From Candidatus Heimdallarchaeota archaeon (GTDB lineage Archaea; Asgardarchaeota; Heimdallarchaeia; Heimdallarchaeales; Heimdallarchaeaceae), in assembly GCA_030603365.1 (NCBI GenBank), contig JAUVXV010000008.1, positions 85,388 to 149,387 on the forward strand: a stretch of 64,000 nt of DNA. Reading direction: 5' to 3'. The position numbers were made by a program, and so were the translations under genes. Shown piece by piece: positions 7,680 to 33,578 of this stretch. Under the pieces are notes generated by a model. That model had not been told where the DNA came from, searched no databases, and worked only from the letters and a program-made list of their open reading frames with translations. The stretch's first letter is position 1, and each line of letters opens with the position of its first letter.

Positions 7680-8774
7680 ATGTTAAATAGTGTGTCAATT
7701 GAGATAGAAAACTTGTATAAGGAATACCAGAAAAAAGGGAAGAAAATAGTTGCTTTAAACAATGTTTCATTAAATATTAAAGAGGGAGAATTTATAGGAC
7801 TGCTAGGACCTAATGGAGCAGGAAAAACCACTTTAACAAAGATTCTAACAACTCTTCTTCTTCCTACATCAGGTGAAGCTTATATCAATGATATTTCAAT
7901 AAAAGAAGACAAAAAAATTCGGAAGATAGTTGGAGCTGTTTTTGGAGAAACAGGGGGTAGAAGTTTATATTATCGTCTTTCTATTGAAGACAATCTTCTG
8001 TTCTATAGTACCCTTAGTGGTTTGAGTAAGGATGTAGCAAGGAAAAGAATATCTTCATTATTGAATTATTTTGATTTAGAAGATAAAAGAAAAACCTTAG
8101 TCATGAAACTTTCAACAGGAATGAAAGCTAAAGTGCTTTTAATTAGGGCATTAATTCCTTTTCCTAAAATTCTTCTGCTTGATGAACCAACACTAGGATT
8201 CGATGCAGAAAGCTCTGAAAAAGCAAAAGATCTTCTTAATGAATTTAATAGAGAGTTCGGAACCACTATTCTTCTAACAAGCCATAATTTTCCTGAAATT
8301 GATGAACTAACCTCACGTTTGATTCTAATAGACAGTGGAGACATAGTTGAAGATTGTCCTCCTAATATCTTCAAGAAAACAGCTGTTCAAGAATATGTGC
8401 ACTTAATGTTTTCCTTACCTCCTCTACCCTCAGATGGATTTGGAATGTCTAAGCTTCCAACAGAAATTTTCAAGAAACTTGTAAAAGATCAAGCAGGAGC
8501 TGACATATTATCTTTGAAAGTGAAGGATAGTTTCAATTTTGTATTTGAAGCAACAATACAACCTATAACATATCCCTTGAATGAAACAATATCTCGTATA
8601 ACAGTCTTAATTCTTCGAGCAAGTGGTGAAATCTTCAAAATTGCTCCCTATATGCCAAGTTTAAAAGAATCATTTTTAGCCTTTCTTGCTCTTAATAAGC
8701 AAGAATCACTTGAAAACAAGGAAACCGACTTAAATGAAATATTCACTTTTCCAATCCAAGAGGAGGATGTATAA
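7680..8774 (+). CDS. ABC-2-type exporter, ATP-binding subunit
   Basis: GPNGAGKTT, LSTGM signature variant, LLLDEPT, TSH. Confidence 0.92.
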   Translation: MLNSVSIEIENLYKEYQKKGKKIVALNNVSLNIKEGEFIGLLGPNGAGKTTLTKILTTLLLPTSGEAYINDISIKEDKKIRKIVGAVFGETGGRSLYYRLSIEDNLLFYSTLSGLSKDVARKRISSLLNYFDLEDKRKTLVMKLSTGMKAKVLLIRALIPFPKILLLDEPTLGFDAESSEKAKDLLNEFNREFGTTILLTSHNFPEIDELTSRLILIDSGDIVEDCPPNIFKKTAVQEYVHLMFSLPPLPSDGFGMSKLPTEIFKKLVKDQAGADILSLKVKDSFNFVFEATIQPITYPLNETISRITVLILRASGEIFKIAPYMPSLKESFLAFLALNKQESLENKETDLNEIFTFPIQEEDV

Positions 8775-8788
8775 CTATTACTCATCAA

Positions 8789-9640
8789 TTGGTGGATGTT
8801 CTCGAGTCCTTTAGTTATACTACTAAGAAATCAGCTTTTTACTCTCGAATCAATGTTATTTTTAAATCAAGAATTAAGATGGCTTTAAGCTACAAAAGTA
8901 GTTATTTTATGACTATTTTTTTGAATCTTGTTACACTAGTAATGTACTTCTTTTTTAGTAAACTCAACCCAGATTTAACTATTTTTGGTATTTCATCAAC
9001 CTATGTAGAATTTTGTTTTCTTGGATTGAGCTTACAAATGATAATAGGTACTACACTTTCAACTGTGAGTGCAAGTATCTACAATGAGATAATATCTGGA
9101 ACCTGGTCTTCTCTTTTAGTTAATTTCAGTTTCTTTGAATATTCGATAGGAAGTACTCTTGCAGGAGTAACACTATCATCAATTTCAGTTTTCATAGCTT
9201 TATTCTTAGCTTTTCTTTTCATGGGATCATTTTATGTGATTTCTTTACAAGAGGTTTTAATCATCATAATGCTATTTGTTCTTATTTTACTTTCACACAT
9301 GGTCGTTTCAATGGTCTTTGCATCATTTACAATATTCTATCAAAAAAACAGTGGATTAATACCACTTCTTTATCAATTATCTAAAACTTTTACAGGTGTA
9401 GTTTTTCCAATTGCTTTGCTTAAAGGATTTCCTATGTTTCTTTCAAGAGTTTTACCTCTAACGTATGGATTGGAAGCATTACAATCTATCGCTTTAAATG
9501 ACACTTCAAATTGGAGGTTAATTTTCACCAATAGTGCAATTTTGATCGGTATCACCTTAATCTTAGGTGTATTGTCCTATTTTCTAGTCGTAAAGAGTAT
9601 TAAAAACTCTAAATTGAAAAACAAGGTGGATTGGTACTAA
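8789..9640 (+). CDS. ABC-2-type exporter permease
   Basis: About 6 TM segments; E..SGT, GVVFPI..L...LPLTYG pattern. Confidence 0.85.
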   Translation: MVDVLESFSYTTKKSAFYSRINVIFKSRIKMALSYKSSYFMTIFLNLVTLVMYFFFSKLNPDLTIFGISSTYVEFCFLGLSLQMIIGTTLSTVSASIYNEIISGTWSSLLVNFSFFEYSIGSTLAGVTLSSISVFIALFLAFLFMGSFYVISLQEVLIIIMLFVLILLSHMVVSMVFASFTIFYQKNSGLIPLLYQLSKTFTGVVFPIALLKGFPMFLSRVLPLTYGLEALQSIALNDTSNWRLIFTNSAILIGITLILGVLSYFLVVKSIKNSKLKNKVDWY

Positions 9641-10524
9641 TTTCAACAAAACGGACTAAAGGAGTAATTGAACAATTTAACCATACAGAAGTATCTCTAA
9701 GTTTTCTTAGTGGTTTTAAAGCAACATTCGCTAGAAACATACGTATCATTTGGCAGTATAAGTTTACACTCCTAATTGGGTTTGTTAATACATTTACTGT
9801 TGCTAGCCTATTTTATTATGTAGCGAATTTAGTTCCCAATCTGCTAATAAGTCAAGATAATTACGTTGTTAGTAGTATACCATTTATTTTTGCAGGAAGC
9901 ATGCTAGTGGATATATCAACACGAATCTTGATGAAATCAATGAATAGTTTCACAAGTGAAATGAGACAAGGAACTTTTGAAACACTTGCAACTCAACCTT
10001 TTGGTTTAAAGAAATATTTCATTTCAGAGATTACTTTCGAGGTATTGTATAGCTTAATCTTCTCAATTATTTACTATATTCCAGTATTATTTATCTTCCC
10101 TATATTCACTGGAATATCAGTCAATGTTTACTCAGCACTTTCTTTCCTACTTATCATTGTATTTGTACTCTTATTTTTCTTTTCTCTATCTCTATTAGCA
10201 GCCAATATCACTATATTGGTAAAGAGAGGAAGAGAGATTTCTATGGTCCTTATAGGAGTTATACACCTTCTAAGCGGAAGTCTCTTTCCTCTCTCGCTAT
10301 TCCCAGAATGGTTAAGAATAATAGCATATTTTTCACCAATGACGTTAGCAGTTCAGGCATTTAGATTATGCTTATTTGGAGGAGGAACAATAGGAGATTT
10401 CCATGTATGGTTATCTTTAATTGTTCTGATAGTTTCATCTCTAATTATCCTTTTACTTTTTAATTTTACGTACAAAAAAATCTATAATCGAATAAGAATG
10501 AAGGGGACAATCCATGAATTCTGA
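9631..10524 (+). CDS. ABC-2-type exporter permease (second subunit)
   Basis: EMRQGTFE, LSGSLFPLSLFPEWL, SPMT; overlaps the upstream permease. Confidence 0.87.
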   Translation: MVLISTKRTKGVIEQFNHTEVSLSFLSGFKATFARNIRIIWQYKFTLLIGFVNTFTVASLFYYVANLVPNLLISQDNYVVSSIPFIFAGSMLVDISTRILMKSMNSFTSEMRQGTFETLATQPFGLKKYFISEITFEVLYSLIFSIIYYIPVLFIFPIFTGISVNVYSALSFLLIIVFVLLFFFSLSLLAANITILVKRGREISMVLIGVIHLLSGSLFPLSLFPEWLRIIAYFSPMTLAVQAFRLCLFGGGTIGDFHVWLSLIVLIVSSLIILLLFNFTYKKIYNRIRMKGTIHEF

Positions 10525-10543
10525 AAGAGGAAAAATATTTTGT

Positions 10544-11188
10544 TTAATTCAACAATTGAAGGAACTCACCAGTGATTTTTTCGACATCTTTAGCTTGAGT
10601 AATTGCTCTACCTACAACTATTATGTCAGCACCATTATTGAGGGCTTTTTGGCTAGCATTGATATCTAATCCACCAGCAACAGCAATAAGTGACTTAGGA
10701 TAACTAGTTTTAATCAATCGAATTGTTTCCCAAGGATGATCTATATTGTTCTCTTGATCAATACCTCTATGGAATAAGATGATTTCAGGAACTCTGGATA
10801 ATGAATCTAGTAATTGCTTAGGGTCATTAATATTCATACAATCAAGAATTATATCAACAGCTTTCTGTCGTCCTTCTTTTAGAGAAGATTCTATAGTCTC
10901 GAGTGAAGCTAAACCGCTAATCGCGACTGCATTGACGGAAGCTTCAGCAGCAATTCTCACTTCCAGCCAACCAACATCTAAAGTTTTCATATCTGCGATG
11001 ACATAAGAATCTAAACAAAAACCTCTAATTTGCTCAATTATTGAAACACCGAATTTCTTGATTAGGGGGGTACCTGCTTCATAAAGAATTTCCTTTTTCA
11101 CAGGTAGTCGGCTTAAGATACGATTTAAATCTTCAAGCGAAACTAAATCTAAGGCGATTTGTAAGTATGGAGGTTCTTCTAAGTTCAT
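10544..11188 (-). CDS. 3-hexulose-6-phosphate synthase (OMPDC/HUMPS family; resembles the Hps domain of archaeal Fae-Hps)
   Basis: YLQIALD, EAGTPLIK, ADMKTLDVG, HRGID, VAGG, VGRAIT. Confidence 0.8.
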   Translation of the reverse strand: MNLEEPPYLQIALDLVSLEDLNRILSRLPVKKEILYEAGTPLIKKFGVSIIEQIRGFCLDSYVIADMKTLDVGWLEVRIAAEASVNAVAISGLASLETIESSLKEGRQKAVDIILDCMNINDPKQLLDSLSRVPEIILFHRGIDQENNIDHPWETIRLIKTSYPKSLIAVAGGLDINASQKALNNGADIIVVGRAITQAKDVEKITGEFLQLLN

Positions 11189-11189
11189 T

Positions 11190-12548
11190 TTATACGCCTA
11201 GCAGTCTTGTTTTAACTCCTTCTTTGAGTGTCCTTGGTTGAGCAACATCTTTAACATAATCTAAGATATAATTTTGATTCCTTTTATCACCATGAATAAG
11301 AATAATATCTTGTGCATCTGTTTTTTGCATTATAAATTTCAATCCATCTACAGAACTATGACCAGAATAGGGGAATTTCATTACTTTGGCTTTAAGAACA
11401 AGATTCTTTTTTCGTCCCCTTCCATTATCAATTGTAATAGATCTTTCTCCATCATAAATTGCTCTACCAAGTGTTCCATCAACTTGATATCCTGTAAATC
11501 CTATAACATTTTCTTCATTGTCTCCACACAATTCAAGATAGGTATGAACAGGTCCTCCTTCCAACATTCCAGAAGTAGTGACAATAATAGATCCTTCAGT
11601 ATTTTTAGCAATATATCTCCTTGCGGCATGGGTTCGTTCAGAAATTGAGTTTACAGGAATAAAATTACTTTTTTCGAAGGGAGAATGTAAACCTGCATCT
11701 CTTAATTGTTCCAGAAATCTTTTTGAAACCCATTTATCTGAAAGAAAATGCTCTGTAATCATATTCATTTGGTTGATCATCCCATCGATATATATAGGAA
11801 CATCTGATAAATCATCATCAAGAGCTAAAGTAATTAGGGTTTCTTGAGATCTTCCAACAGCAAAAGAAGGTAAAATCATTTTGTGTTTTTCATCAGTTAC
11901 TTGTTTCGCAATGAGTCGTAATCCCACATCAATTTTGGATCTTTCAGGAACATATCTTTCTCCATTTGTTGATTCAGTTATGAGAATATCAATTTCTTCC
12001 TTAGGCAAATCATATCCATCGAACATTGGGGTTACTCTATCATTTATATCAGCAGTATAAAGTATCAAAGTCCCTTCCCAATCTATAAGAATTTGAGCAG
12101 CACCTAACACATGACCTGCATTAAGGAACTGTGCAGATATTCCATCAGCTAACTTGAATGGTTTATAATAGTTTAATGTTCGAATCTTGTGAAATACCCT
12201 ATCTAAGTCTGATTCACCCCAATGTCTTCTTCCCTCAATTTTTAGATGATCCAACCACAATCTATAGACAACTTCCTTAGTAGGATGGGTCATAAAATAA
12301 TTTCCTCTATATCCATTTCTGGATAAAGAAGGCATGTAACCAGAATGGTCTATGTGAGCATGACTAAGTAATACTGCATCTAAATCAGATGCAACATCAT
12401 CTACACCTTTGGGTGCGACAGAAAACTGCTTAGGTCTAAGTTCTATCCCGCAATCCAGCAGTATATTGTGATCTTTGTTACTTAGAAGAAAGGAGCTTCT
12501 TCCAACATAATCCGTAGCGCCGAAAGCAGTTATGTTTATTTCATTCAT
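11190..12548 (-). CDS. Beta-CASP metallo-beta-lactamase ribonuclease (aCPSF-like, no KH domains)
   Basis: LLDCG, SHAHIDH, AGHVLG, EST.G, FAVGRSQE, TSGML.GG, SGH, IHG. Confidence 0.9.
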   Translation of the reverse strand: MNEINITAFGATDYVGRSSFLLSNKDHNILLDCGIELRPKQFSVAPKGVDDVASDLDAVLLSHAHIDHSGYMPSLSRNGYRGNYFMTHPTKEVVYRLWLDHLKIEGRRHWGESDLDRVFHKIRTLNYYKPFKLADGISAQFLNAGHVLGAAQILIDWEGTLILYTADINDRVTPMFDGYDLPKEEIDILITESTNGERYVPERSKIDVGLRLIAKQVTDEKHKMILPSFAVGRSQETLITLALDDDLSDVPIYIDGMINQMNMITEHFLSDKWVSKRFLEQLRDAGLHSPFEKSNFIPVNSISERTHAARRYIAKNTEGSIIVTTSGMLEGGPVHTYLELCGDNEENVIGFTGYQVDGTLGRAIYDGERSITIDNGRGRKKNLVLKAKVMKFPYSGHSSVDGLKFIMQKTDAQDIILIHGDKRNQNYILDYVKDVAQPRTLKEGVKTRLLGV

Positions 12549-22609: not shown

Positions 22610-23584
22610 TTATTTTATGAGTAGCATTGATGTGATGTTAATCAGTTTATCTCTAGCTGAACTCGGAGGAAATTCTTCCAAAATGGCTTTTGATTCATCA
22701 GCATATTGATTAATCAGATTTTTTACAGTATCAATAGCTTGAGAGTCTACTAAAATAGTTGTGATGGTCTCAACAGGATAAGTCATTCGCTCTATATAGT
22801 ATTCTTCAATTATTCGTTTTTCCTTTTTAGGTAAGGTATCTATTGCTTCCAAAACAATGAAAGTTTGAATTCTATTGGTAATATCTGTCAAGACACCAAA
22901 TTTACTCAAATCATTTTGGTTTGAAGTTAACGATAGTAAATCATCTCTTAATTGAAAAGCCCTTCCAAATAAAGTTCCGAACGTTTTCATCTTCTCCAGA
23001 TCGTTTTTTGTGGATTTGCCTAGTATAAAACCGACGACGGAAGCAGTTTCAAAAAGAATTGAAGTTTTTCGATCTATTAGTTGTAATGCTTCTTCCTTTG
23101 ACATTTTCTTACCCCCCTCTCTGAATTTTTGTTCTAAGAACAAAGAGGTGGAAAGGACAGAGATCGCTTTAATAATTTCTTCTACAATCTCTAAAACATC
23201 TGTTTTTGAAGCTAAACTGAGAGCTAAACTACTCATTGAGTAAGAAATTGAGAGTGCAGAAAAAGTTGAGAATTTCAAGTAAAATGATTTTTCTTTTCTT
23301 CTGAAAATATCTTTATCAAAAATATCGTCTATAAGGAGTGACGCATTATGTATAATCTCTAGTGCACATGCAGCTGCATAACTTGTATCATTTCTGATTT
23401 GATTTGATATCATCTCAAAGGATAATAGACAGATTAAGGGCCTAATTCGTTTCCCACCTTTGTGAAGAATTTGATCTATCAAATCATTAATTTCATCGTC
23501 ATATGGGCTATAATCCCTCAAATTATGAAGATAGATGTTTATCTGTTCTACTTCCTCAGTGAGATCAAAGTATGCCTTGCTCAA
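22610..23584 (-). CDS. trans-polyprenyl diphosphate synthase (probably long-chain), divergent
   Basis: GGKRIRP, EIIHNASLLIDDIFD...RR, KT..LF, AFQLRDD. Confidence 0.88.
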   Translation of the reverse strand: MSKAYFDLTEEVEQINIYLHNLRDYSPYDDEINDLIDQILHKGGKRIRPLICLLSFEMISNQIRNDTSYAAACALEIIHNASLLIDDIFDKDIFRRKEKSFYLKFSTFSALSISYSMSSLALSLASKTDVLEIVEEIIKAISVLSTSLFLEQKFREGGKKMSKEEALQLIDRKTSILFETASVVGFILGKSTKNDLEKMKTFGTLFGRAFQLRDDLLSLTSNQNDLSKFGVLTDITNRIQTFIVLEAIDTLPKKEKRIIEEYYIERMTYPVETITTILVDSQAIDTVKNLINQYADESKAILEEFPPSSARDKLINITSMLLIK

Positions 23585-23640: not shown

Positions 23641-25140
23641 TTAAGAGAGTAGATTTAAGGATATAAGAGAACAATATTCAAGAAATTGTACAAAAAGTAT
23701 CAGTACTGAAATGATGATAACACAAAGCAACAATGTACTAATGATAGTACCTGGCTCTATCCTCTGGACATCTAGTTTTTCCTTCGATTCAACCACAAAT
23801 AGTAATTTCATAATTCTAATAAAATAAATCAAGGAGAACAATAAAACTACTAAAAAGAAAATTGAACTCAAATACATTCTAGGGGTGTAGAAAGAAGCAA
23901 AACTATACTTTTTGGATATGATGAACATACTTATTGGAATGATGAATAGCAGTAAGAAATTGAAGATATTTACTACATATTGAGAGATAGAATTTCGACT
24001 AATACTACTCAGTAGATCTATATCATCTGTTTTGAATCCTTTAGAAATAGAACTGAACAAAGAAATAGAAAATGAAAAAATCAAAACATATGCAAAAACA
24101 CCATAATTTACAGTTTTGAGACTTTCAATAAGATTTTCATTTGGAATTGAGATTGAGAATATATCAGATAAAATCAGGAATATTATACCGATATAAAGAA
24201 GGCTAAGGTAATAAAGCAGCTTTTGAAGGCTAGATTGGGTTATCGCACCTAAAACACCCCATAATGAATAGAGTAGTCCAAGTATTGTATAGAACCACAA
24301 TAAGACAGTTGATAATTGGGAAACGGAAATCATACTAGAATACTTAACCAAAAATGCTAGAGCCAATCCTCTTTGAATAATTAATAGTACAAAAGTACTT
24401 GCGTTAAATTGCTTATTTTCCACATCAAAGAACCACGAATGGAATGGAGGGACACCAATTAATATCAACAGAGAGAATATAACAAATATAATACTTAGAT
24501 ATTCCCAAAGATGCATTGATGTATTTCCTATTGAAAAACTAAATAAATTACCTGAGAATGAATGACAGGCTATCCCTATAAACATCAGAGATAATGACAT
24601 GCTTGTCATAGCCAGATAACTAGTGAATACCTTTCTATTTTCAGGAGTAGTTCGATGATTTAAACTTCGCAAGAAAAGATTCAATCCCATAAAAATCAGA
24701 ATGAATCCAAAAAGTATGTTAATCCAGGAATTGGAAGCAATTACAAACCATGTAGAACTCTGGATCAGTAATAGTGAGATGAATAGAAGATAACTCTTTT
24801 TTGATTCTAAACTAACCTCAACAATCGAAATAAAACTAGCAATTACAGTTGCAATTCCAATTGTATAATATATTCCCGCAGTAAATGGTGTGATTTGAAT
24901 ATTGAAATAAGGGTTCCAGATTTCTTCAAATGGTGAATAGATATACCAGAACATAATAAGAGAAATAACACTACAGGTTATTGCAATGTAACCATAAATA
25001 ATTCTCATTCTTGATAGGAAATAAGGATATTTCTGTGTTATTTTGGAAGATAACATCCCAGAAATAATTAAAACAAAAATCCCCAGTAACAGAATTTCTA
25101 AAGGAAAGAAAATGTAAAGAAATAGTGCTGCATAATGCAT
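23641..25140 (-). CDS. NuoN-like antiporter-family membrane protein (degenerate)
   Basis: About 14 TM segments; GVPPFHSWFFDV, LGAITQSSLQKLL.Y, LIYFIRIMK. Confidence 0.75.
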   Translation of the reverse strand: MHYAALFLYIFFPLEILLLGIFVLIISGMLSSKITQKYPYFLSRMRIIYGYIAITCSVISLIMFWYIYSPFEEIWNPYFNIQITPFTAGIYYTIGIATVIASFISIVEVSLESKKSYLLFISLLLIQSSTWFVIASNSWINILFGFILIFMGLNLFLRSLNHRTTPENRKVFTSYLAMTSMSLSLMFIGIACHSFSGNLFSFSIGNTSMHLWEYLSIIFVIFSLLILIGVPPFHSWFFDVENKQFNASTFVLLIIQRGLALAFLVKYSSMISVSQLSTVLLWFYTILGLLYSLWGVLGAITQSSLQKLLYYLSLLYIGIIFLILSDIFSISIPNENLIESLKTVNYGVFAYVLIFSFSISLFSSISKGFKTDDIDLLSSISRNSISQYVVNIFNFLLLFIIPISMFIISKKYSFASFYTPRMYLSSIFFLVVLLFSLIYFIRIMKLLFVVESKEKLDVQRIEPGTIISTLLLCVIIISVLILFVQFLEYCSLISLNLLS

Positions 25141-27104
25141 TAGATTTTACCTCCCGAATATAAAATGAGTACCACAATTATAAGTAAAAACAAAGACACT
25201 AAAACAACTTGAATTTGGCTTCTAAGTTTAGATTCTTCAAGCTTCTGAATGAAATTAGATGTCAGTTTGAAGAACTTAACTACATTTGGAATTACAGTAT
25301 CCTTTGTTTTTCTAGCAATAAATTTATATGCTGTAACAATGAATTTCCAAATCCTCATTAAAATATTTTCTACCATGATTTTCTTGATTACAATTTGATA
25401 GAACCAATTTGAAGCTGGAACTATAGCTTTGGTCCAAACTAAAATCACTGGTGCAAAAATGAAGTCAAATGTGTAAATATTTCTGAATATCTTTTCAAGA
25501 ATTACAGTAAATTTCAAGAGTTTTTTTGAGAAACTTTCAAAGTATTTCTTAATGATAATAAATGCACATAGTACTATAAGACATCCTGAAAGCAGAGAAA
25601 TTAATGAAATCAGTAGATGGCTAAATGTAATAATTGAAGGGAAAGTAAATGGATTTATTATATTGAAACGGGGATAAAGAAAACTATTCAATGAAAGGAA
25701 AATAACTACAAGAATTGTAATCGTTATTTCAACATTCGTGAATTGAAACTTTTCTTCCAAGGTGATTTGTTTTTTGTAAAGTATAATTGAAAGACAAAAG
25801 ATTCCAAAGAAAAGAAGTAGAGTTATTACGAAAAATCCGATATTAAATGCAGGAGAACTAACTGAAAGAATGTGAATTAGTGATAGGAATGTACCATTGA
25901 AAGGCTCTACTCCTAGTATTGATAAAAATATAATCACAAAACCGATAAATCGAGTTGTTGTTCTGATAATCATTACGCTTTTTCTACTCGGTTTCTCATC
26001 TTCTTTAGCTTCATTTGGCGTAAATAGGAAGGGGACAAGTCCTATAGATATGATAGGTAATGCAATCAGTAATTGAAAACTAATTGATAGATATCCTAAC
26101 CCTAGAAAGAAAATAAACAATCCTGATAAGAGAGCAAAAACAAGAATAACAGTTTCAAGTTTTTGCTGTAGGAATAAAGAAAATATCACGCTAATGAGTG
26201 CAAACAACAATCCATACCAAACGAAGAAAGTGGAACCTTGAAGAGAGATTAGTAGTACAAATGGAGTAATGTAGATGAAAGAAAGAATAATTGTGAAATG
26301 TGTTGATAAGAAGAGAAAGATCGAATCTCCATTTGGTGAGCATGTTTTTTTGAACCAAGTATGAAATGGAAACAAAGCGTTTTTGGCTATTATTCCAAGA
26401 AGAAGTAAACTAACAAACAGCTGAACTACAGGTTCATACTTTGTTGGATTTGTGAGGATGTCATTGGATACAATATTGAAATCCAAACTTTTAGCCTCAT
26501 AAGCTAGAAGTACTGAACTAGATATCAATAAAGCATTTCCAATGATAAATGACCCAATCATACTCTTTTGAGCGATTGTAACTTTCTCCTTGGAAATCAG
26601 TGTTAGACTAATCACCAAATCTATTATCAATAAATCAGCTATAAGCATGAACAATAATATTTGGAAGAAATTTGTAGAAAGAATCACTAAAATTAAGGTG
26701 ATAGAATATAACGATATTTTACTAGTGTATTTTTCTTTCCAATAAGGCTTTTTCCAAGTTAGAAATACATTGGTAAGTGCAAGAATGAACATCACAGTAA
26801 AGTAGATAATACTCTGTGCTAGAGTTAGTTGAAATCCAATTTCAAAAGAATATGGATGGAACACTACAATAGGCACACTTTCTTTAATTTGAATTATTGG
26901 AGAACCAAAAAAGTTAACTAAGAAGATTGAGAAAATAGCAATAGCAAATCCTAAGAAGATAAGAGAAGTAAATATAGAAAACAACTTCTTCCTTTTATCA
27001 TTTCTAGACTTAATTAGAGCAAATAAATATCCTAAGAGTGAAACTAGTAGAAGTAAACCACCTTGTATCAAGAGTAATAATATGATGTTATTCATTCTCT
27101 TCAC
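25140..27104 (-). CDS. NuoL-like antiporter-family membrane protein (degenerate)
   Basis: GIIAKNALFPFHTW (cf. GKSAQ.P.H.W), long amphipathic C-terminal helix followed by a final TM helix. Confidence 0.75.
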   Translation of the reverse strand: MKRMNNIILLLLIQGGLLLLVSLLGYLFALIKSRNDKRKKLFSIFTSLIFLGFAIAIFSIFLVNFFGSPIIQIKESVPIVVFHPYSFEIGFQLTLAQSIIYFTVMFILALTNVFLTWKKPYWKEKYTSKISLYSITLILVILSTNFFQILLFMLIADLLIIDLVISLTLISKEKVTIAQKSMIGSFIIGNALLISSSVLLAYEAKSLDFNIVSNDILTNPTKYEPVVQLFVSLLLLGIIAKNALFPFHTWFKKTCSPNGDSIFLFLSTHFTIILSFIYITPFVLLISLQGSTFFVWYGLLFALISVIFSLFLQQKLETVILVFALLSGLFIFFLGLGYLSISFQLLIALPIISIGLVPFLFTPNEAKEDEKPSRKSVMIIRTTTRFIGFVIIFLSILGVEPFNGTFLSLIHILSVSSPAFNIGFFVITLLLFFGIFCLSIILYKKQITLEEKFQFTNVEITITILVVIFLSLNSFLYPRFNIINPFTFPSIITFSHLLISLISLLSGCLIVLCAFIIIKKYFESFSKKLLKFTVILEKIFRNIYTFDFIFAPVILVWTKAIVPASNWFYQIVIKKIMVENILMRIWKFIVTAYKFIARKTKDTVIPNVVKFFKLTSNFIQKLEESKLRSQIQVVLVSLFLLIIVVLILYSGGKI

Positions 27105-27369
27105 TCCTATTATCTTTTTCTAGAAGATTCATCTTTAATTCATCTCTAAACATGAAAATAAGAATTAAAGAGATAGCAAAAAACCCTAGAATGAAATATA
27201 GGATTGTGTTTGAATTTAAACTAATACTGGAAACTAGTAACAAACCTGAGAAAATAAGAAATAAAAATCCAAAAACCATCATCATCTTTGATTTGGAGAA
27301 TAATAATAGAAGAAAACCTAAACCAATACAAACCAACGCTGTTGCTACAAGATAACTTAAGTAAACCAT
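27088..27369 (-). CDS. NuoK-like small 3-TM protein (degenerate)
   Basis: YLVATALVCIGL resembles NuoK TM1; size and position between the J-like and L-like genes fit. Confidence 0.55.
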   Translation of the reverse strand: MVYLSYLVATALVCIGLGFLLLLFSKSKMMMVFGFLFLIFSGLLLVSSISLNSNTILYFILGFFAISLILIFMFRDELKMNLLEKDNRSEENE

Positions 27370-28037
27370 GGTTCATCTCCCCTCTGTTTATTTTTGGATT
27401 TTAGATCTATTACAAAGATAAAGACTAGAATAATCAGGAAAATTAAGAAAACTACGAGAATAGCTAAAGCTTCATAATTTTGTGCAAATAAATCAAGAAG
27501 AGATATTGGTTCCAACCAAATTATCTGATTTTGAGATAGAATTAGGAGGATGTACATCGATGTGACAGGAATAGCCAGAAGAACGATGAAACTTATAGCT
27601 TGGGTCTTCCTTGAGATTATCAATTCTTTACTAACTGTTTTATCTTTGAACAAGAAAAATGCAGTGAAACCTATCATAAGAATATATGAATAGCACAGAC
27701 AAAGTATGAATAATGCTATTTGTCCTATTGATAGAAAAATCAAGGAAAATGATAGGAAACTACACAAGAATAAGATTAAACTCATACCATTAGATTCAAG
27801 AATCCCCTTAACTAGAAACCCAGCTCCTATGAAGCTACCCAAGAAATAATATGAATCTGAAGTTGCATCAGAAAAAACAATTACTAAAGCAATTAGAATG
27901 ACCAATAGTGTTATCTTCAAACCTAACCAGATTTTTCTCTTTAACTTAAAGAAATTTGGAAGAATAATTATACTAGTTATAATTAAACTAAAAATTGAGA
28001 CTAAAATGGTAGAAATAAATTCTGATAAACCAAACAT
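27357..28037 (-). CDS. NuoJ-like membrane protein (degenerate, with N-terminal extension)
   Basis: LILFLCSFLSFSLIFLSIG...Y and LF..NY....I segments follow the NuoJ pattern; synteny supports it. Confidence 0.5.
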   Translation of the reverse strand: MFGLSEFISTILVSIFSLIITSIIILPNFFKLKRKIWLGLKITLLVILIALVIVFSDATSDSYYFLGSFIGAGFLVKGILESNGMSLILFLCSFLSFSLIFLSIGQIALFILCLCYSYILMIGFTAFFLFKDKTVSKELIISRKTQAISFIVLLAIPVTSMYILLILSQNQIIWLEPISLLDLFAQNYEALAILVVFLIFLIILVFIFVIDLKSKNKQRGDEPWFT

Positions 28038-28098: not shown

Positions 28099-28845
28099 CT
28101 ACTTCGTTTTTGTGCCCCTTTTTTTTCTGTGATAACTGAACATTGAAATCACTACTATAACAGAAATCAATCCTGCTGGACTATCGAAGAACGCTGTTTC
28201 CTCTAATTCTGGTATTGGCAGATTTGCTGTGAACAGTGGAACACTTGTATTATAACCAGGAAAACTTGGTAAGCTTGGAACAAGTGGCATTCCATCACCA
28301 AAAGTAGTAAAATTACCTAATGTGTAATTTAAACCAAAATCTAGTCTATATAGTAAATTACAGCCTAATGTTTTAGTAAGATTCACATAATAAACGGGTA
28401 TATTGTGAAGAAGGTTTTTTCTAATTTCTTCATAAAGAGGATCAGGATAGAAAAGAACTTCCCAATGAAGTGGTGATGTTTCTGGAATTTTTAAACTCCA
28501 TTTAGCGTTCAAAATAATTCTGAATAGATCTGTTTTAACGGTATAATTATAGTGAGATAAATCAAATATTGATACTCCCCAAAAACCATAATATGTATCC
28601 ATTTCTACATCTTTGTTTGTATCAAAACCAAGAATTTGCATATATACTGTTGGTTTTTTATAATTATCTACTTCAGGATCTTCTGGGTTAATAATAATTC
28701 CTCTATAATCATCACTGCTTTGGTTCATCACACCTGTGAAATCCCAAACTTCTTCTTCAGCCCCTTGTGTTAGTGCAACTCTACTAGACATAAAGAAGAA
28801 TGATGAAAGCATCAAACCAATGAGTAATAAAGTAGTCTTTTTCAT
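28099..28845 (-). CDS. Secreted membrane-anchored hypothetical protein (paralog B)
   Basis: Signal peptide, C-terminal TM helix + RKKR; shares motifs with 28842-29705. Confidence 0.75.
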   Translation of the reverse strand: MKKTTLLLIGLMLSSFFFMSSRVALTQGAEEEVWDFTGVMNQSSDDYRGIIINPEDPEVDNYKKPTVYMQILGFDTNKDVEMDTYYGFWGVSIFDLSHYNYTVKTDLFRIILNAKWSLKIPETSPLHWEVLFYPDPLYEEIRKNLLHNIPVYYVNLTKTLGCNLLYRLDFGLNYTLGNFTTFGDGMPLVPSLPSFPGYNTSVPLFTANLPIPELEETAFFDSPAGLISVIVVISMFSYHRKKRGTKTK

Positions 28846-29705
28846 TTCTTAATCCTCCTAATTCGTTTGACTATCGTGAGAATCATAAGAGCAAGTCCTA
28901 ATGTAGTTAATACGGACATAAATTGGAAGTCAACTTCTATACTATGGGTACGAGGACGAGAGGTCCTATCAACATTCTGAGCAACAGTAATGTTAGTTTG
29001 TGGCCACCATTCTTCTTCAGGATAAGGGTCATGTGGGGGACCAACGAATAATGGATTGTCTTGACCATAAGTTGTGAAATTACCATTAATAATAGTCTGG
29101 TCTTTCTTAATCTGTTGCCAATGTCCAACTACACCTGTTTGATTGACTAAATAGGCTATATGTACAGGAACAGCTAGAACTCCTCCACTAAACAAATATG
29201 AAAAAGCTATAATTTTTATCATAACTCTTTGAAATATAAAATAAATTTCTTCATTATATGATGAGCTAGAACTATTGATTATTGGAGAATCTTCAAGAAC
29301 ATTAATCCATTCCATTCCGTTTTCTTTACTCACATTAAAACCATACTCAGCTCCAGGAGATGGTTCCTCCCAGAATATAGATGCATATGGTGCATTTCTT
29401 ATTTCATTTATACCATGTAATGCAACTATTGTATCAGGATTCAAATCATCATCATTCACATCGTCTAAAAGGAATATGAACGTTCTAAGCACATATGGGT
29501 CTTCAACAACAGACTTAGTTACACCATCAGTAGGATAAATCGGAATATATTTGATTCTGTGAGCTTGTTGATTTGTAATGCCTTTATAATCCCAGTTTTC
29601 AGTAAACACAAGTTCTCCTGATGTTGGAGTTATAGTATTTTTCACAAAAGGAGAGAACATTAATGTTAAAACAATTGTTAGACAAAATATCTTTGGGTAT
29701 TTCAC
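28842..29705 (-). CDS. Secreted membrane-anchored hypothetical protein (paralog A)
   Basis: Signal peptide, C-terminal TM helix + KRIRRIKK; 4-bp overlap with the next gene. Confidence 0.75.
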   Translation of the reverse strand: MKYPKIFCLTIVLTLMFSPFVKNTITPTSGELVFTENWDYKGITNQQAHRIKYIPIYPTDGVTKSVVEDPYVLRTFIFLLDDVNDDDLNPDTIVALHGINEIRNAPYASIFWEEPSPGAEYGFNVSKENGMEWINVLEDSPIINSSSSSYNEEIYFIFQRVMIKIIAFSYLFSGGVLAVPVHIAYLVNQTGVVGHWQQIKKDQTIINGNFTTYGQDNPLFVGPPHDPYPEEEWWPQTNITVAQNVDRTSRPRTHSIEVDFQFMSVLTTLGLALMILTIVKRIRRIKK

Positions 29706-29835: not shown

Positions 29836-31662
29836 TTGAACCAGATGTCATGGCTCCAAGACCGAAAACGGTCTCATTCTGCAAAAGAAGTTGCTAAGGT
29901 AATTATGCCTTATATTACTAGACGTAAAGGTTTCTTGGTCTTTATTACTATTGTATCTTTTTTTGCTGCTATTATCGGTCTGGTATCTCCGTTATTAGTT
30001 AGAGAAGTAATTAATACTGCAATTCCGGAGAATAATTTAGAACTTGTTTGGATAATAGGGGGAAGCGTTCTGGGAGTAGCTTTATTTGGTGGATTTCTTC
30101 AATATGTTTCTAGATTTTACGCTGCGAAATATGCTCAAGAAGCAATTTTCGATCTTAGGAATGACATATATGAAACATTGCAACAGCTAAGTTTAGAGTT
30201 CTATGATGAGGAAAATACAGGACAGATTATGACTAGAGTTACAACTGACTTAAATGCTATACAGAGCTTGATTAGTTTCACTCTTCGATTAATAATGAAT
30301 GGAGCGGTATTCTTTATTGGTTCATATATTGCGATGCTTGTTATGAGCTGGAGATTAGGTTTAATTCTTGTTGCTCTTTTTCCTGGATTTATATGGTTAG
30401 TTTATTGGTTTAGTACAAGAGTTAGACCCTTGTTCTATATGGCAAGAAGGCAGTTTGGTGATGTCACTTCAATTCTTCAAGAAAATGTTACTGGGGCACA
30501 TGTTGTTAGGGGATTTGCACAAGAAGAAAATGAGATTGCAAAATTCGATGAATCAAATATCATATACAGAGATTTAAGAGTCAAAACACAAGTCTATAGA
30601 GCTATTTATTTCTCAATTATGACACTGTTAATTGGTATAGGTTCAACTTTAATAATAATGGTAGGAGGTACTCAAATAGTTAATTATCAACTAAAAATTG
30701 GTGATTTTATTGCTTTCTTATCATATCTAGCTCTTCTACCAGGTCCAACAAGACAATTAACATGGTTAGTAGGTATTTTACAAAGAGCATTAGCTAGTGG
30801 AGATAGAATAATCGAACTAATTACTGCAAAGAAAGAAGTTCAAGAAGATCCAAATGCGTTGATTCCACCGAAGTTTGAAGGTGATATAACCTATAAAAAT
30901 GTCTTTTTTGAATATGAAAAGGGGAGAACGATACTAAAAAACATAAACATCAACATACCTAAAGGTCAAAAAATTGTAATTTTGGGCGGTACAGGAAGTG
31001 GTAAAAGCAGTTTTGTAAACCTATTATCACGCTTCTATGATCCAACTGAGGGATTGGTCATGATTGACTCTCAAGATGTAAAGCACTACAAACTAAAAGA
31101 AATGAGAAAGCAAATTGGTTTAGTTTTACAAGAAACATATCTCTTTAATGCAACAATAAGAGAAAATATCGCGTTTGGTAAGCCGGATGCAAATGATGAT
31201 GAAATTATTATGGTTAGTAAAATAGCCAATATTCATGATTTTATTTCTGGTTTACCTAATGGTTATGATACCAAAGTCGGTGATAGAGGCATTACTCTTT
31301 CTGGAGGTCAGAAACAGAGATTATCAATTGCTAGAACATTACTAACAGACCCTTCAATTCTGGTTTTTGATGATTCTACAGCTTCTGTAGATGCTGAAAC
31401 TGAAGCTCAAATTCAAGAAGCTCTTGATATCCTCAGTACTGGGAGAACAACTATCATCATTTCACAAAGGATTTCTTCTGTCCATTATGTGGATAGAGTA
31501 TTAGTGTTTGAAGATGGGGAGATTATTCAAGATGGGAAACATAAAGATTTGATCAAATCTCAGGGATTATATCAAGAAATTTACCACACATTAGAAAGAA
31601 GCTATGGTGATATTGAAAAAAATACAACAAAAACAGATTCAGAACTAAGGGGGAATGATTAA
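29836..31662 (+). CDS. Heterodimeric ABC exporter, TMD-NBD half (degenerate-site subunit)
   Basis: GGTGSGKS, LSGGQ, Walker B FDD, switch Gln (ISQR). Confidence 0.92.
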   Translation: MNQMSWLQDRKRSHSAKEVAKVIMPYITRRKGFLVFITIVSFFAAIIGLVSPLLVREVINTAIPENNLELVWIIGGSVLGVALFGGFLQYVSRFYAAKYAQEAIFDLRNDIYETLQQLSLEFYDEENTGQIMTRVTTDLNAIQSLISFTLRLIMNGAVFFIGSYIAMLVMSWRLGLILVALFPGFIWLVYWFSTRVRPLFYMARRQFGDVTSILQENVTGAHVVRGFAQEENEIAKFDESNIIYRDLRVKTQVYRAIYFSIMTLLIGIGSTLIIMVGGTQIVNYQLKIGDFIAFLSYLALLPGPTRQLTWLVGILQRALASGDRIIELITAKKEVQEDPNALIPPKFEGDITYKNVFFEYEKGRTILKNININIPKGQKIVILGGTGSGKSSFVNLLSRFYDPTEGLVMIDSQDVKHYKLKEMRKQIGLVLQETYLFNATIRENIAFGKPDANDDEIIMVSKIANIHDFISGLPNGYDTKVGDRGITLSGGQKQRLSIARTLLTDPSILVFDDSTASVDAETEAQIQEALDILSTGRTTIIISQRISSVHYVDRVLVFEDGEIIQDGKHKDLIKSQGLYQEIYHTLERSYGDIEKNTTKTDSELRGND

Positions 31663-33578
31663 TGGGGCACATAATGAGACAAATGGCACGAGAAGAAGAA
31701 CAACGAGAGAAGAAATATTCTGATTGGGTTCTTTTCAGAAGAGTATTTGGAGTATTTAGCTATTATAAAGCTGAAGCTGGTTCAGTACTTGCAATAGTAG
31801 TTGTTTTTTCTGTTTTTACATCTACAGTACCTCTACTTCTTGCACAAATTATTGATTTATTTATCTCTCCTTTAGCAAGATCGAGTGCGTATATCGTAAA
31901 TTACTTTAATTCTTTTACAAGTTATGAAACGATCAACGAGGTTCTAATTCAGAGTAAACTGAAAATACTTGCCCCATCAGCAACTTCACAAGATATAAAT
32001 TCTATTTTGATTATGGGAGCAATGTATCTGTTATTTATGATAATGAATTTCATTATGATACTTGTAAGAACAATTTTCTTTGCTCGATTGGGTCAGAAAA
32101 TGATATACCGTATAAGAAATGATTTATTCGCAAAATTGCAGTATCTTTCATTTGAGTATTTCACAGAAACAGAATCAGGCAGAACAATTTCAAAGTTAAC
32201 GAACGATGTTGATTCCTTAGGAGAACTATTAACAACAGGAATTATAGATATCTTTGCTGATTTTGTTAGTTTAGTATGGATACTTGCCCTTATGTTTATT
32301 ATTGATGTCCAGATGGCTTTGTTCACTCTCACTGTTATTCCAGTATTGCTGGTAATAGCATTTCTTTTCCAAAGGAAAGTTAGGTCGGCTTATAGAAGAA
32401 CAAGAGTAGCAATAGCTAAAGTAACTGCAAACTTGCAAGAAACAATATCTGGTGTAAAAGTAACTAAAGCACTTTCTAGAGAAGAAAAAAACATTCAGAA
32501 TTTTAAGGGTTTAAATCGTGAGAATTATTCAGCTAATGTTCATGCAGCTAGTATCTCATCACTATTTATGCCCATAATACAAATTATTGCAGCATTAGGC
32601 AGCACTATCGTTATTGTTTTTGGGGGTTATTCTGTCATTACAACAGGAACAATATCTCTGGGTGAACTTTATGCCTTCCTTGAATATTCTAACAGATTCT
32701 TTATGCCAGTCATAAGTCTGTTTACCTTCTATACAACAATTCAATCAGGTTTCGCTAGTGCAGAAAGAATATTTGAGATTCTTGATGAAGAACCTTCTGT
32801 AAAAAACTCAAAAGAACCAATCATACCTGAGGTAATAAACGGTCATTTAAAGCTGGTAAATGTTGACTTTCATTATCTACCAGAAGTTCCTATTCTAAAA
32901 GATATTAATCTAGCAATAGAACCTGGAAAGAGCATCGCTTTAGTTGGTCAAACTGGTGCTGGAAAAACCACAATCACGAAACTACTCTCTCGCTATTATG
33001 ACGTGACAGCTGGAGAGTTATTTGTTGATGGTATAAATATTAAAGAAATTGACTTAGAAACTTTGAGAAAAAATATAGCCGTTGTTCCTCAAGATGTATA
33101 TCTGTTTAGTGGTTCTATTATGGACAACTTAAAATTTGGAAGAAAAGAGGCTTCTGATGATGAAGTATATGAGATTTGCTTAATACTAGGCTTACACGAT
33201 TATATTCTGAAACTTCCAGAAGGATATGATACTGATGTGAAAGAAGGTGGAGCCAGATTATCATTAGGACAGAGGCAATTGATATCTCTTGCTAGAGCTG
33301 TAGTGGCAAATCCAAGTATTCTCATTTTAGATGAGTGCAGCAGTTCAGTTGATCCTATTACAGAAGCTCTTATTCAAAAAGGTATAAATTATATCTTGAA
33401 GGAAAGAACATCAATCATTATTGCTCATAGGTTAAGTACCATTAAAAATGTCTCACAAATAGTAGTCTTAGACGATGGTGAAATTGTGGAAATAGGTTCT
33501 CATAAAGAGCTTCTTCGTAAAAAAGGTAGATATCACGACTTATACGAAACACAAATTACAAGTAATCTAATTAATTAA
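31662..33578 (+). CDS. Heterodimeric ABC exporter, TMD-NBD half
   Basis: GQTGAGKT, LSLGQ, ILDE, IAHRLST; TAATG coupling to the upstream gene. Confidence 0.92.
   Translation: MGHIMRQMAREEEQREKKYSDWVLFRRVFGVFSYYKAEAGSVLAIVVVFSVFTSTVPLLLAQIIDLFISPLARSSAYIVNYFNSFTSYETINEVLIQSKLKILAPSATSQDINSILIMGAMYLLFMIMNFIMILVRTIFFARLGQKMIYRIRNDLFAKLQYLSFEYFTETESGRTISKLTNDVDSLGELLTTGIIDIFADFVSLVWILALMFIIDVQMALFTLTVIPVLLVIAFLFQRKVRSAYRRTRVAIAKVTANLQETISGVKVTKALSREEKNIQNFKGLNRENYSANVHAASISSLFMPIIQIIAALGSTIVIVFGGYSVITTGTISLGELYAFLEYSNRFFMPVISLFTFYTTIQSGFASAERIFEILDEEPSVKNSKEPIIPEVINGHLKLVNVDFHYLPEVPILKDINLAIEPGKSIALVGQTGAGKTTITKLLSRYYDVTAGELFVDGINIKEIDLETLRKNIAVVPQDVYLFSGSIMDNLKFGRKEASDDEVYEICLILGLHDYILKLPEGYDTDVKEGGARLSLGQRQLISLARAVVANPSILILDECSSSVDPITEALIQKGINYILKERTSIIIAHRLSTIKNVSQIVVLDDGEIVEIGSHKELLRKKGRYHDLYETQITSNLIN

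Follow-up and report, generated by a model that had tools for sequence, protein, structure and literature searches.

Antiporter-like membrane subunits are, to our knowledge, known only as ion-translocating modules, namely those of Complex I, Mrp, membrane-bound hydrogenase (MBH) and its relatives, and DAB. In the MBH structure (6CFW), MbhH has its lateral helix supplied by a separate subunit, MbhI, and cyanobacterial NDH-1 swaps its antiporter-like subunits. Here we describe a cluster of four membrane genes that encodes relatives of such subunits. It lies at 23641-28037, on the minus strand of a 64,000-nucleotide (nt) stretch of contig JAUVXV010000008.1 (the window hereafter), which belongs to a genome of the family Heimdallarchaeaceae. 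An original prediction, made from the sequence alone, had described these genes as an intact but charge-depleted Complex I membrane arm in nuoJ-K-L-N order. We tentatively interpret the cluster, with a confidence slightly short of even, as a divergent paralogue of that arm, specific to Heimdallarchaeaceae and made of NuoK-, NuoL- and NuoN-like subunits plus a protein with seven transmembrane (TM) helices; it has probably been repurposed and would no longer perform canonical pumping. No description of this cluster was found in the literature. Its genes are, in the direction of transcription:

27357-28037, minus strand: 7-TM protein at the NuoJ position ("J-like", 226 amino acids), an open reading frame (ORF) without an assigned family
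27088-27369, minus strand: NuoK-like subunit with three TM helices, 93 amino acids, from hhalign against Asgard NuoK
25140-27104, minus strand: NuoL/ND5-like subunit, 654 amino acids, with lateral helix and C-terminal TM anchor, from profile and predicted fold
23641-25140, minus strand: NuoN-like antiporter-fold subunit, 499 amino acids, from TIGR01770, PDB profile and hhalign

The four membrane ORFs are free of stops and overlap by 13, 17 and 1 nt according to the ORF calls, the first overlap being that of the stop of the 7-TM gene with the start of the K-like gene. The genes are thus translationally coupled, and the uninterrupted, overlapping frames of the original prediction stand as described. 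None of the four proteins was recognised in a Pfam scan of the window proteins. The gene order K-L-(M)-N is that of the distal arm of Complex I and the group 4 [NiFe]-hydrogenases, and the best matches are likewise specific for each subunit: L to NuoL/ND5/NdhF, N to NuoN and, in a variant described below, M to NuoM. Unlike Complex I, however, the cluster has neither NuoH, NuoA nor a Q-module in cis. A profile search of the genome contigs found no NuoH, NuoA, NuoM or hydrophilic arm (NuoB/C/D/I) on the contig of the window, which extends to the whole contig what had previously been noticed for the vicinity of the genes.

The identity of the L-like protein as a remote NuoL homologue is secure. 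Its likely start is an ATG three codons into the 654-amino-acid ORF. The match to NuoL in NCBIfam is full-length but weak (E 0.002), and no Pfam match at E <= 1 was obtained for this protein or for distant members of its family, which places it, like the N-like protein, below the PF00361 threshold that subunits of the Complex I arm pass. When the family profile was searched against the PDB, NdhF (6hum_F) was matched with an E-value of 5.9e-10, and NuoL was also matched. For comparison with canonical Asgard subunits by hhalign, family alignments were extended with distant members from related genomes; the L-like family then matched NuoL-type subunits at 98.4%. A hidden Markov model (HMM) search of 1.84 billion representative proteins retrieved only 21 L-like relatives at E < 1e-10, followed by a gap and then by ordinary NuoL proteins (PF00361, PF00662, NADH5_C).

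The AlphaFold2 (AF2) model of the L-like protein is confident (predicted local distance difference test, pLDDT, 83.4; predicted template modelling score, pTM, 0.80). TM2 is followed by a beta-hairpin, and TM7 is broken by a loop between helices 227-241 and 249-255. The model also has a TM12 composed of helices 375-397 and 405-415 with a break at the conserved Gly398/Pro401 (GxxP), and a 75-residue lateral helix (550-624) followed by a TM segment (627-650), as the original prediction had anticipated for the long lateral helix. All these elements, TM16 included, are those of the Complex I arm, and the best 50 Foldseek matches were, without exception, NuoL/ND5/NdhF chains aligned over the full length of the protein. 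Ser616, Glu623 and Gln630 are invariant in the family.

The N-like protein can be identified with the same security as a remote NuoN homologue. It lacks a Pfam match at E <= 1, and its match to the NuoN model TIGR01770 is full-length but weak (E 1.6e-10, 40 bits against a cut-off of 332). Its family profile matched NuoN (8e9g_N) in the PDB with an E-value of 8.6e-5, and the family aligned with NuoN-type subunits over 421 columns (hhalign 98.7%, E 2.8e-16). The conserved hinge motifs on which the original prediction had relied are found throughout: the PFH motif of TM7 is invariant in the L-like and N-like families, and reads PPFH in the latter.

Assignment of the two small proteins is less straightforward. 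The K-like protein is likely a NuoK homologue, as judged from its alignment with Asgard NuoK over columns 1-42 (hhalign 87%, P 4e-6); PF00420 was the commonest weak Pfam match, found in 5/15 members with a best E-value of 0.0037, always below the cut-off. A side observation concerns a metagenome contig (L008, 7179-7535) where the K-like gene encodes 118 amino acids, as 25 residues of TM3 are repeated in tandem. This contig also has an inositol-phosphate synthase gene broken up into three ORFs, and both anomalies may be either assembly errors or real lesions.

The first gene of the cluster encodes a 7-TM protein and no recognisable NuoJ, a further difference from the Complex I arm. NuoJ has five TM helices, versus seven predicted in the 226-amino-acid protein. 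The seven long helices are visible in the AF2 secondary structure although the model is poor (pLDDT 54), and the protein is conserved in all orthologous clusters. NuoJ identity was considered and found no backing: there was no PDB profile match; hhalign gave <=14% with full-length and N-terminal NuoJ alignments and no signal with the NuoA, NuoH and NuoK of the same genome; PF00499 was not matched by any of 15 members in a per-member Pfam scan; and a wide fold search with VIA-align, using the AF2 model, retrieved generic helical matches only (Z <= 8.3). A weak lead to NuoJ/MbhD clusters was provided by a language model (0.82 and 0.78). Weak TgpA_N matches (6/15 members, E >= 0.005) look compositional. 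Of the nuoJ-K-L-N set originally proposed, therefore, L and N are confirmed, K is likely and NuoJ is unproven.

Residues involved in proton translocation were examined in 16 N-like and 14 L-like proteins, using 23 M/N-type and 8 L-type canonical Asgard subunits as baseline. In the baseline, M/N-type subunits carry the TM5 Glu in 23/23 cases, the TM7 Lys in 21/23, a TM8 Lys/Glu in 22/23 and a TM12 Lys/Glu in 23/23; the TM7 His is kept, as the Lys, in 21/23. In the L-type the TM5 Glu, the TM7 Lys and both TM11 His are each present in 8/8. An exception of its own is the canonical N/M-type subunit of the window's genome (L003, contig C14, 11597-13075), where the TM7 Lys is replaced by Thr and the TM7 His by Asn.

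In the L-like family the canonical TM5 Glu site is hydrophobic, and an Asp/Glu (residue 157) is found three residues later in 14/14 members. The TM7 Lys is kept as Lys/Arg241 in 14/14, His248 is present in 12/14, and the TM6 Asp site is occupied by Asn or Asp. According to the profile alignment, neither the second His and the Lys of TM11 nor the Lys-Asp of TM12 has a counterpart; in the family columns, the site of the first TM11 His holds Gln, His or Glu. The residue list of the original prediction for this subunit was correct for the retained TM7 Lys and for the loss of the Arg, HxxxHxxxK and the TM12 Lys-Asp ('SKD'), and had overlooked the invariant Asp/Glu three residues past the 'WE' site and the Asp/Asn at the TM6 Asp site.

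The loss of the TM5 Glu and the TM7 Lys from the N-like protein, also proposed at the outset, extends to 16/16 orthologues (I/L/V at the former site and L/Q/N/V at the latter). Two other sites, absent from the initial account, retain charge: Arg or Lys occupies the TM8 'middle Lys' site in 16/16 (Arg in 11/16; Arg257 in the window) and the TM12 site is Lys or Arg in 9/16 (Lys410 in the window), both sites being assigned from profile alignments with an uncertainty of about one residue. In the K-like family the aligned TM2 Glu site is hydrophobic; TM3 falls outside the profile alignment, and the tabulated TM3 columns carry no acid. The absence of TM Glu first noticed in the window protein is thus a trait of the family.

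A general depletion of charge was considered and rejected, as the fraction of DEKRH residues is 0.135 versus 0.139 in canonical L-type subunits, and 0.102 versus 0.112 in the N-type. Because the overall content is close to that of the canonical paralogues, the loss is site-specific. The view that the buried charges are mostly gone was too strong: Asp157 and Lys241 of L and Arg257 and Lys410 of N survive. A charged axis conserved at shifted positions, which the original prediction had named as an outcome that would refute it, is thus found in part. Work on dissected antiporter modules regards the Glu-Lys pair as a gate, and the middle Lys and the terminal residue as the proton path (PMC11496545). 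With these roles in mind, L would keep the gate without the path, and N part of the path without the gate. As read from the alignments, the loss of charge is real but partial, and complementary between subunits. Compared with the Complex I arm, the cluster is left without the Glu relay of K, the ion pair of N and the middle and terminal carriers of L.

These observations admit more than one explanation. A less likely one, though a serious rival, is that the complex still translocates ions, either as a stand-alone, Mrp-like secondary cation/proton transporter or as a gated proton path; the rewired residues would be Asp157 and Lys241 of L, and Arg/Lys257 of N together with Lys410 and Glu462. In its favour, conservation is highest at the broken helices, in the PFH of TM7 in both L and N and in the Gly398 and Pro401 where TM12 of L is predicted to break. 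The middle basic residue of N occurs in all 16 members examined, and isolated antiporter modules conduct protons (PMC11496545). However, protons are poorly carried by Arg, the predominant residue at the middle site of N, little more than half of the N-like proteins have the TM12 basic residue, L is devoid of all middle and terminal carriers, and K has lost both Glu. The comparison with Mrp (MrpABCDEFG) is likewise double-edged. Both would be redox-independent membrane complexes with L-like (MrpA), N-like (MrpD) and K-like (MrpC) subunits. However, a Pfam scan of six proteins (the four membrane proteins and two surface proteins encoded beside them) detected no MrpE, MrpF or MrpG family (nor MrpB), which counts against an Mrp-like transporter; Nuo L, M and N are better family matches than MrpA or MrpD; and the key Glu and Lys are missing in the cluster.

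The alternative we favour, a repurposed arm, can be outlined as follows. The lateral helix and last TM segment of the L-like protein would strap the N-like, K-like and 7-TM subunits into a small membrane complex. This complex would no longer be a canonical redox-coupled or Mrp-type proton pump, since no subunit keeps a complete module: L would have the gating ion pair without middle or terminal carriers, N the middle and terminal basic residues without the gating pair, and K would have lost its Glu relay. Having probably been repurposed, the arm would now be a structural or organising module of the membrane, perhaps in the service of the two surface proteins encoded with it, or else a carrier of something other than pumped protons; the scaffold, lipid- or quinone-handling and sensor roles of the original prediction are conjectural. 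An arm of this kind, lacking a redox partner, maintained by selection and composed of subunits that each miss a different half of the proton machinery, would point to an undescribed membrane function in the archaeal lineage nearest to eukaryotes.

Several considerations weigh against this outline. Conserved buried charges persist (Asp157 and Lys241 of L; Arg/Lys257, Glu462 and Glu/Asp108 of N), through which ions might still pass by a rewired route. The canonical N subunit of the same genome also lacks the TM7 Lys and His, so that little can be concluded about inactivity from the loss of any one residue. The placement of TM8 and TM12 residues in N carries the uncertainty indicated above, and the assembly of the complex is deduced from homology and gene coupling. 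Lastly, three lineages (G083, G084 and one from a metagenome) keep the four TM genes without the surface proteins.

The action of selection on the cluster was estimated from ratios of nonsynonymous to synonymous substitution (dN/dS). The pairs of loci initially compared were saturated at synonymous sites and were replaced by closer, unsaturated pairs. The pair L005/L043 gave 0.24 for L, 0.15 for N and 0.12 for the neighbouring prenyl synthase; the pair L004/L050 gave 0.17, 0.12 and 0.025, respectively. No stops were found inside the L-like or N-like genes of the compared pairs. In comparisons of the window genome with two genomes from other genera, identities were 28-37% for the divergent K, L and N, versus 60-70% for canonical K, L and N in the same genome pairs; the range for canonical H, A, J, K, L and N was 46-72%, and the prenyl synthase was 58% identical. 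The pace of evolution is therefore far higher in the cluster than in the canonical arm of these genomes. Taken together, dN/dS and identities indicate that the arm is under selection, with a much looser constraint than a working pump. Purifying selection would fit an ion translocator too, but evolution at a much faster pace than the canonical arm does not favour it.

Selection also bears on the idea that the cluster is a decaying relic of a duplicated nuo arm, devoid of present function, which we consider very improbable. Fast evolution, lost catalytic residues and the fact that some lineages have lost M or the L core would be in line with decay. Against it stand the dN/dS range of 0.12-0.24 for L and N, far from 1, the intact frames in every genome examined (N-like matches included, all without stops), the preserved translational coupling and the retention of the cluster in 26/30 other genomes of the family, among them genera whose synonymous sites are saturated. 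Low dN/dS and intact frames led us to reject a pseudogene, and the early judgement that the locus is not the product of simple decay is upheld.

The figure of 26/30 genomes was obtained with the N-like profile. The same search found the cluster in none of the other families of the order, and elsewhere yielded weak matches only (E ~1e-6 to 1e-8), which are taken to be canonical subunits. Among the genomes searched, the cluster is specific to Heimdallarchaeaceae. Orthologues are few, forming nine clusters at 90% identity that are 46-64% identical; one of them is named Candidatus Heimdallarchaeaceae.

Variants of the cluster were detected in certain lineages. In the genome G003, an extra gene of 495 amino acids lies between L and N. 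Its product scores 36.3 bits with PF00361, being the only antiporter-like protein of the cluster that passes the threshold, and its best match is NuoM (TIGR01972, E 1.4e-17). The resulting order, K-L-M-N, argues for a nuo rather than an mrp origin. In a genus that we designate g3, the L core is missing, and a gene of 151 amino acids is found between the K-like and the N-like genes. It matches only the lateral helix and last TM segment of the L family (E 8e-5 and 5.5e-4 with a C-terminal HMM), and shares with it the invariant Pro, Ser, Glu, Gln and Gly-Gly positions. Two metagenome contigs carry short genes like that of g3; one precedes a gene with a weak PF00361 match, and the other precedes a gene cut by the contig end, presumed to be N-like.

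The g3 variant resembles MBH and its relative MBS in being split, with one antiporter-like subunit and with lateral helix and anchor on a separate small gene. In MBH, however, the charged axis is intact and the NuoH-like MbhM provides the coupling to a hydrogenase module; the cluster has no such partner in cis. That the whole L core is dispensable in g3 speaks against ion translocation. A more specific form of the repurposing interpretation, which we propose with some reserve, is that proton pumping was given up in an exaptation for a non-bioenergetic membrane role, along a series K-L-M-N, K-L-N and K-(lateral helix only)-N, where the strap rather than the L pump would be indispensable. If true, this natural deletion series would show that the pump module of L can be dispensed with and its lateral-helix strap cannot. 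Lineages that drop the pump module and keep the lateral helix may in any case provide a test bed for the roles of the ion pair, the middle Lys and the lateral helix.

The rest of the genome was inspected for a canonical counterpart, whose presence had been left for verification by the original prediction. Contig C14 harbors a complete hydrogenase-type Complex-I-like operon, with NuoH, A, J, K, L and N, NuoB, I, D (NiFe-type) and C, and HypC, D, E and F. Its composition fits the group 4 complexes of Heimdallarchaeia, which have short arms (bioRxiv 10.1101/2024.07.04.601786). The possibility that the cluster might be the only canonical arm of the genome, in split form, is ruled out by this operon. 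PF00146 is found on C14 only and PF00346 on C14 and C16, neither of them on the contig of the window. No PF00361 gene exists in the genome outside C14, and the genome is therefore devoid of a canonical Mrp; the same absence lends some plausibility to the cluster as an ion translocator.

Contig C16 contains an orphan NuoB-NuoC-NuoD-NuoI-like set without membrane subunits (L094, G000 contig C16:139000-158500, at 9038-11550 and 7830-8852). The orphan NuoD-like protein lacks NiFe cysteines by eye. The set adjoins a gene for a highly acidic coiled-coil protein of 340 amino acids, which was considered as a NuoH candidate and discarded on account of that nature. Orthologues of the set with 80-91% identity are found only in the family of the window, the next matches being <=48% identical.

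We find it improbable that the cluster encodes a distal arm, alternative or additional, for docking in trans on a redox module such as the hydrogenase-type complex of C14 or NuoB-C-D-I of C16. An orphan set deprived of membrane genes, with close orthologues only in the same family, would suit such docking, as would the short arms of Heimdallarchaeia complexes; subunit swapping in cyanobacterial NDH-1 offers a precedent. However, around 15 genomes that have the arm show no orthologue of the orphan NuoD, with the proviso that many assemblies are incomplete, and a partnership between arm and orphan set is not supported. Furthermore, the genome encodes a single NuoH, and this belongs to the complete operon of C14, which already has J, K, L and N. 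The K-like protein has lost the Glu relay by which an arm is connected to the quinone site, and the presence of K-like and 7-TM subunits in the cluster itself suggests that the complex is self-contained.

The four membrane genes are part of a run of six co-directional minus-strand genes, followed by a prenyl synthase gene in the ORF list of the window. The flanking members are:

28099-29705, minus strand: two paralogous exported proteins with C-terminal anchors (287 amino acids, 28842-29705; 248 amino acids, 28099-28845), heading the gene run
22610-23584, minus strand: polyprenyl diphosphate synthase (PF00348, 149 bits)

A gap of 61 nt separates the two exported-protein genes from the four very hydrophobic ORFs. 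HMMs of the exported proteins match each other at 1e-8 to 1e-11; neither Pfam nor Atlas gave a lead for the two proteins, and none of the six cluster proteins matched a Pfam family at a meaningful E-value. The pair is an accessory component, present in genera g1, g2 and g3. In g3 the second surface protein has 449 amino acids versus ~250, and the inserted region contains a PKD-like domain match (L053 7246-8595; L054 7202-8551).

The polyprenyl synthase gene lies 56 nt downstream of the N-like gene. In all fetched loci that continue beyond the N-like gene, with the exception of G083, the synthase gene comes next, so its linkage to the cluster is conserved, and by gene position it is a conserved neighbour. 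It is the second PF00348 gene of the genome, a better-scoring paralogue being located on C14, and in its second Asp-rich motif DDLLS replaces DDxxD.

The neighbours of the cluster are ABC exporters, the surface proteins and the prenyl synthase. Two ABC exporter genes (ABC_membrane plus ABC_tran, 29836-33578) are divergent from the cluster and adjoin it wherever a fetched locus includes the corresponding upstream region. The stable arrangement comprises the divergent exporter pair, the two surface proteins, the four TM genes, the prenyl synthase and two inositol-phosphate synthases on the opposite strand. In several genomes, TnpB/Cas12f-like genes and transposase fragments were also detected beside the cluster or the orphan Nuo module (L004 3252-5201; L094 13797-15827; L053 4681-5627).

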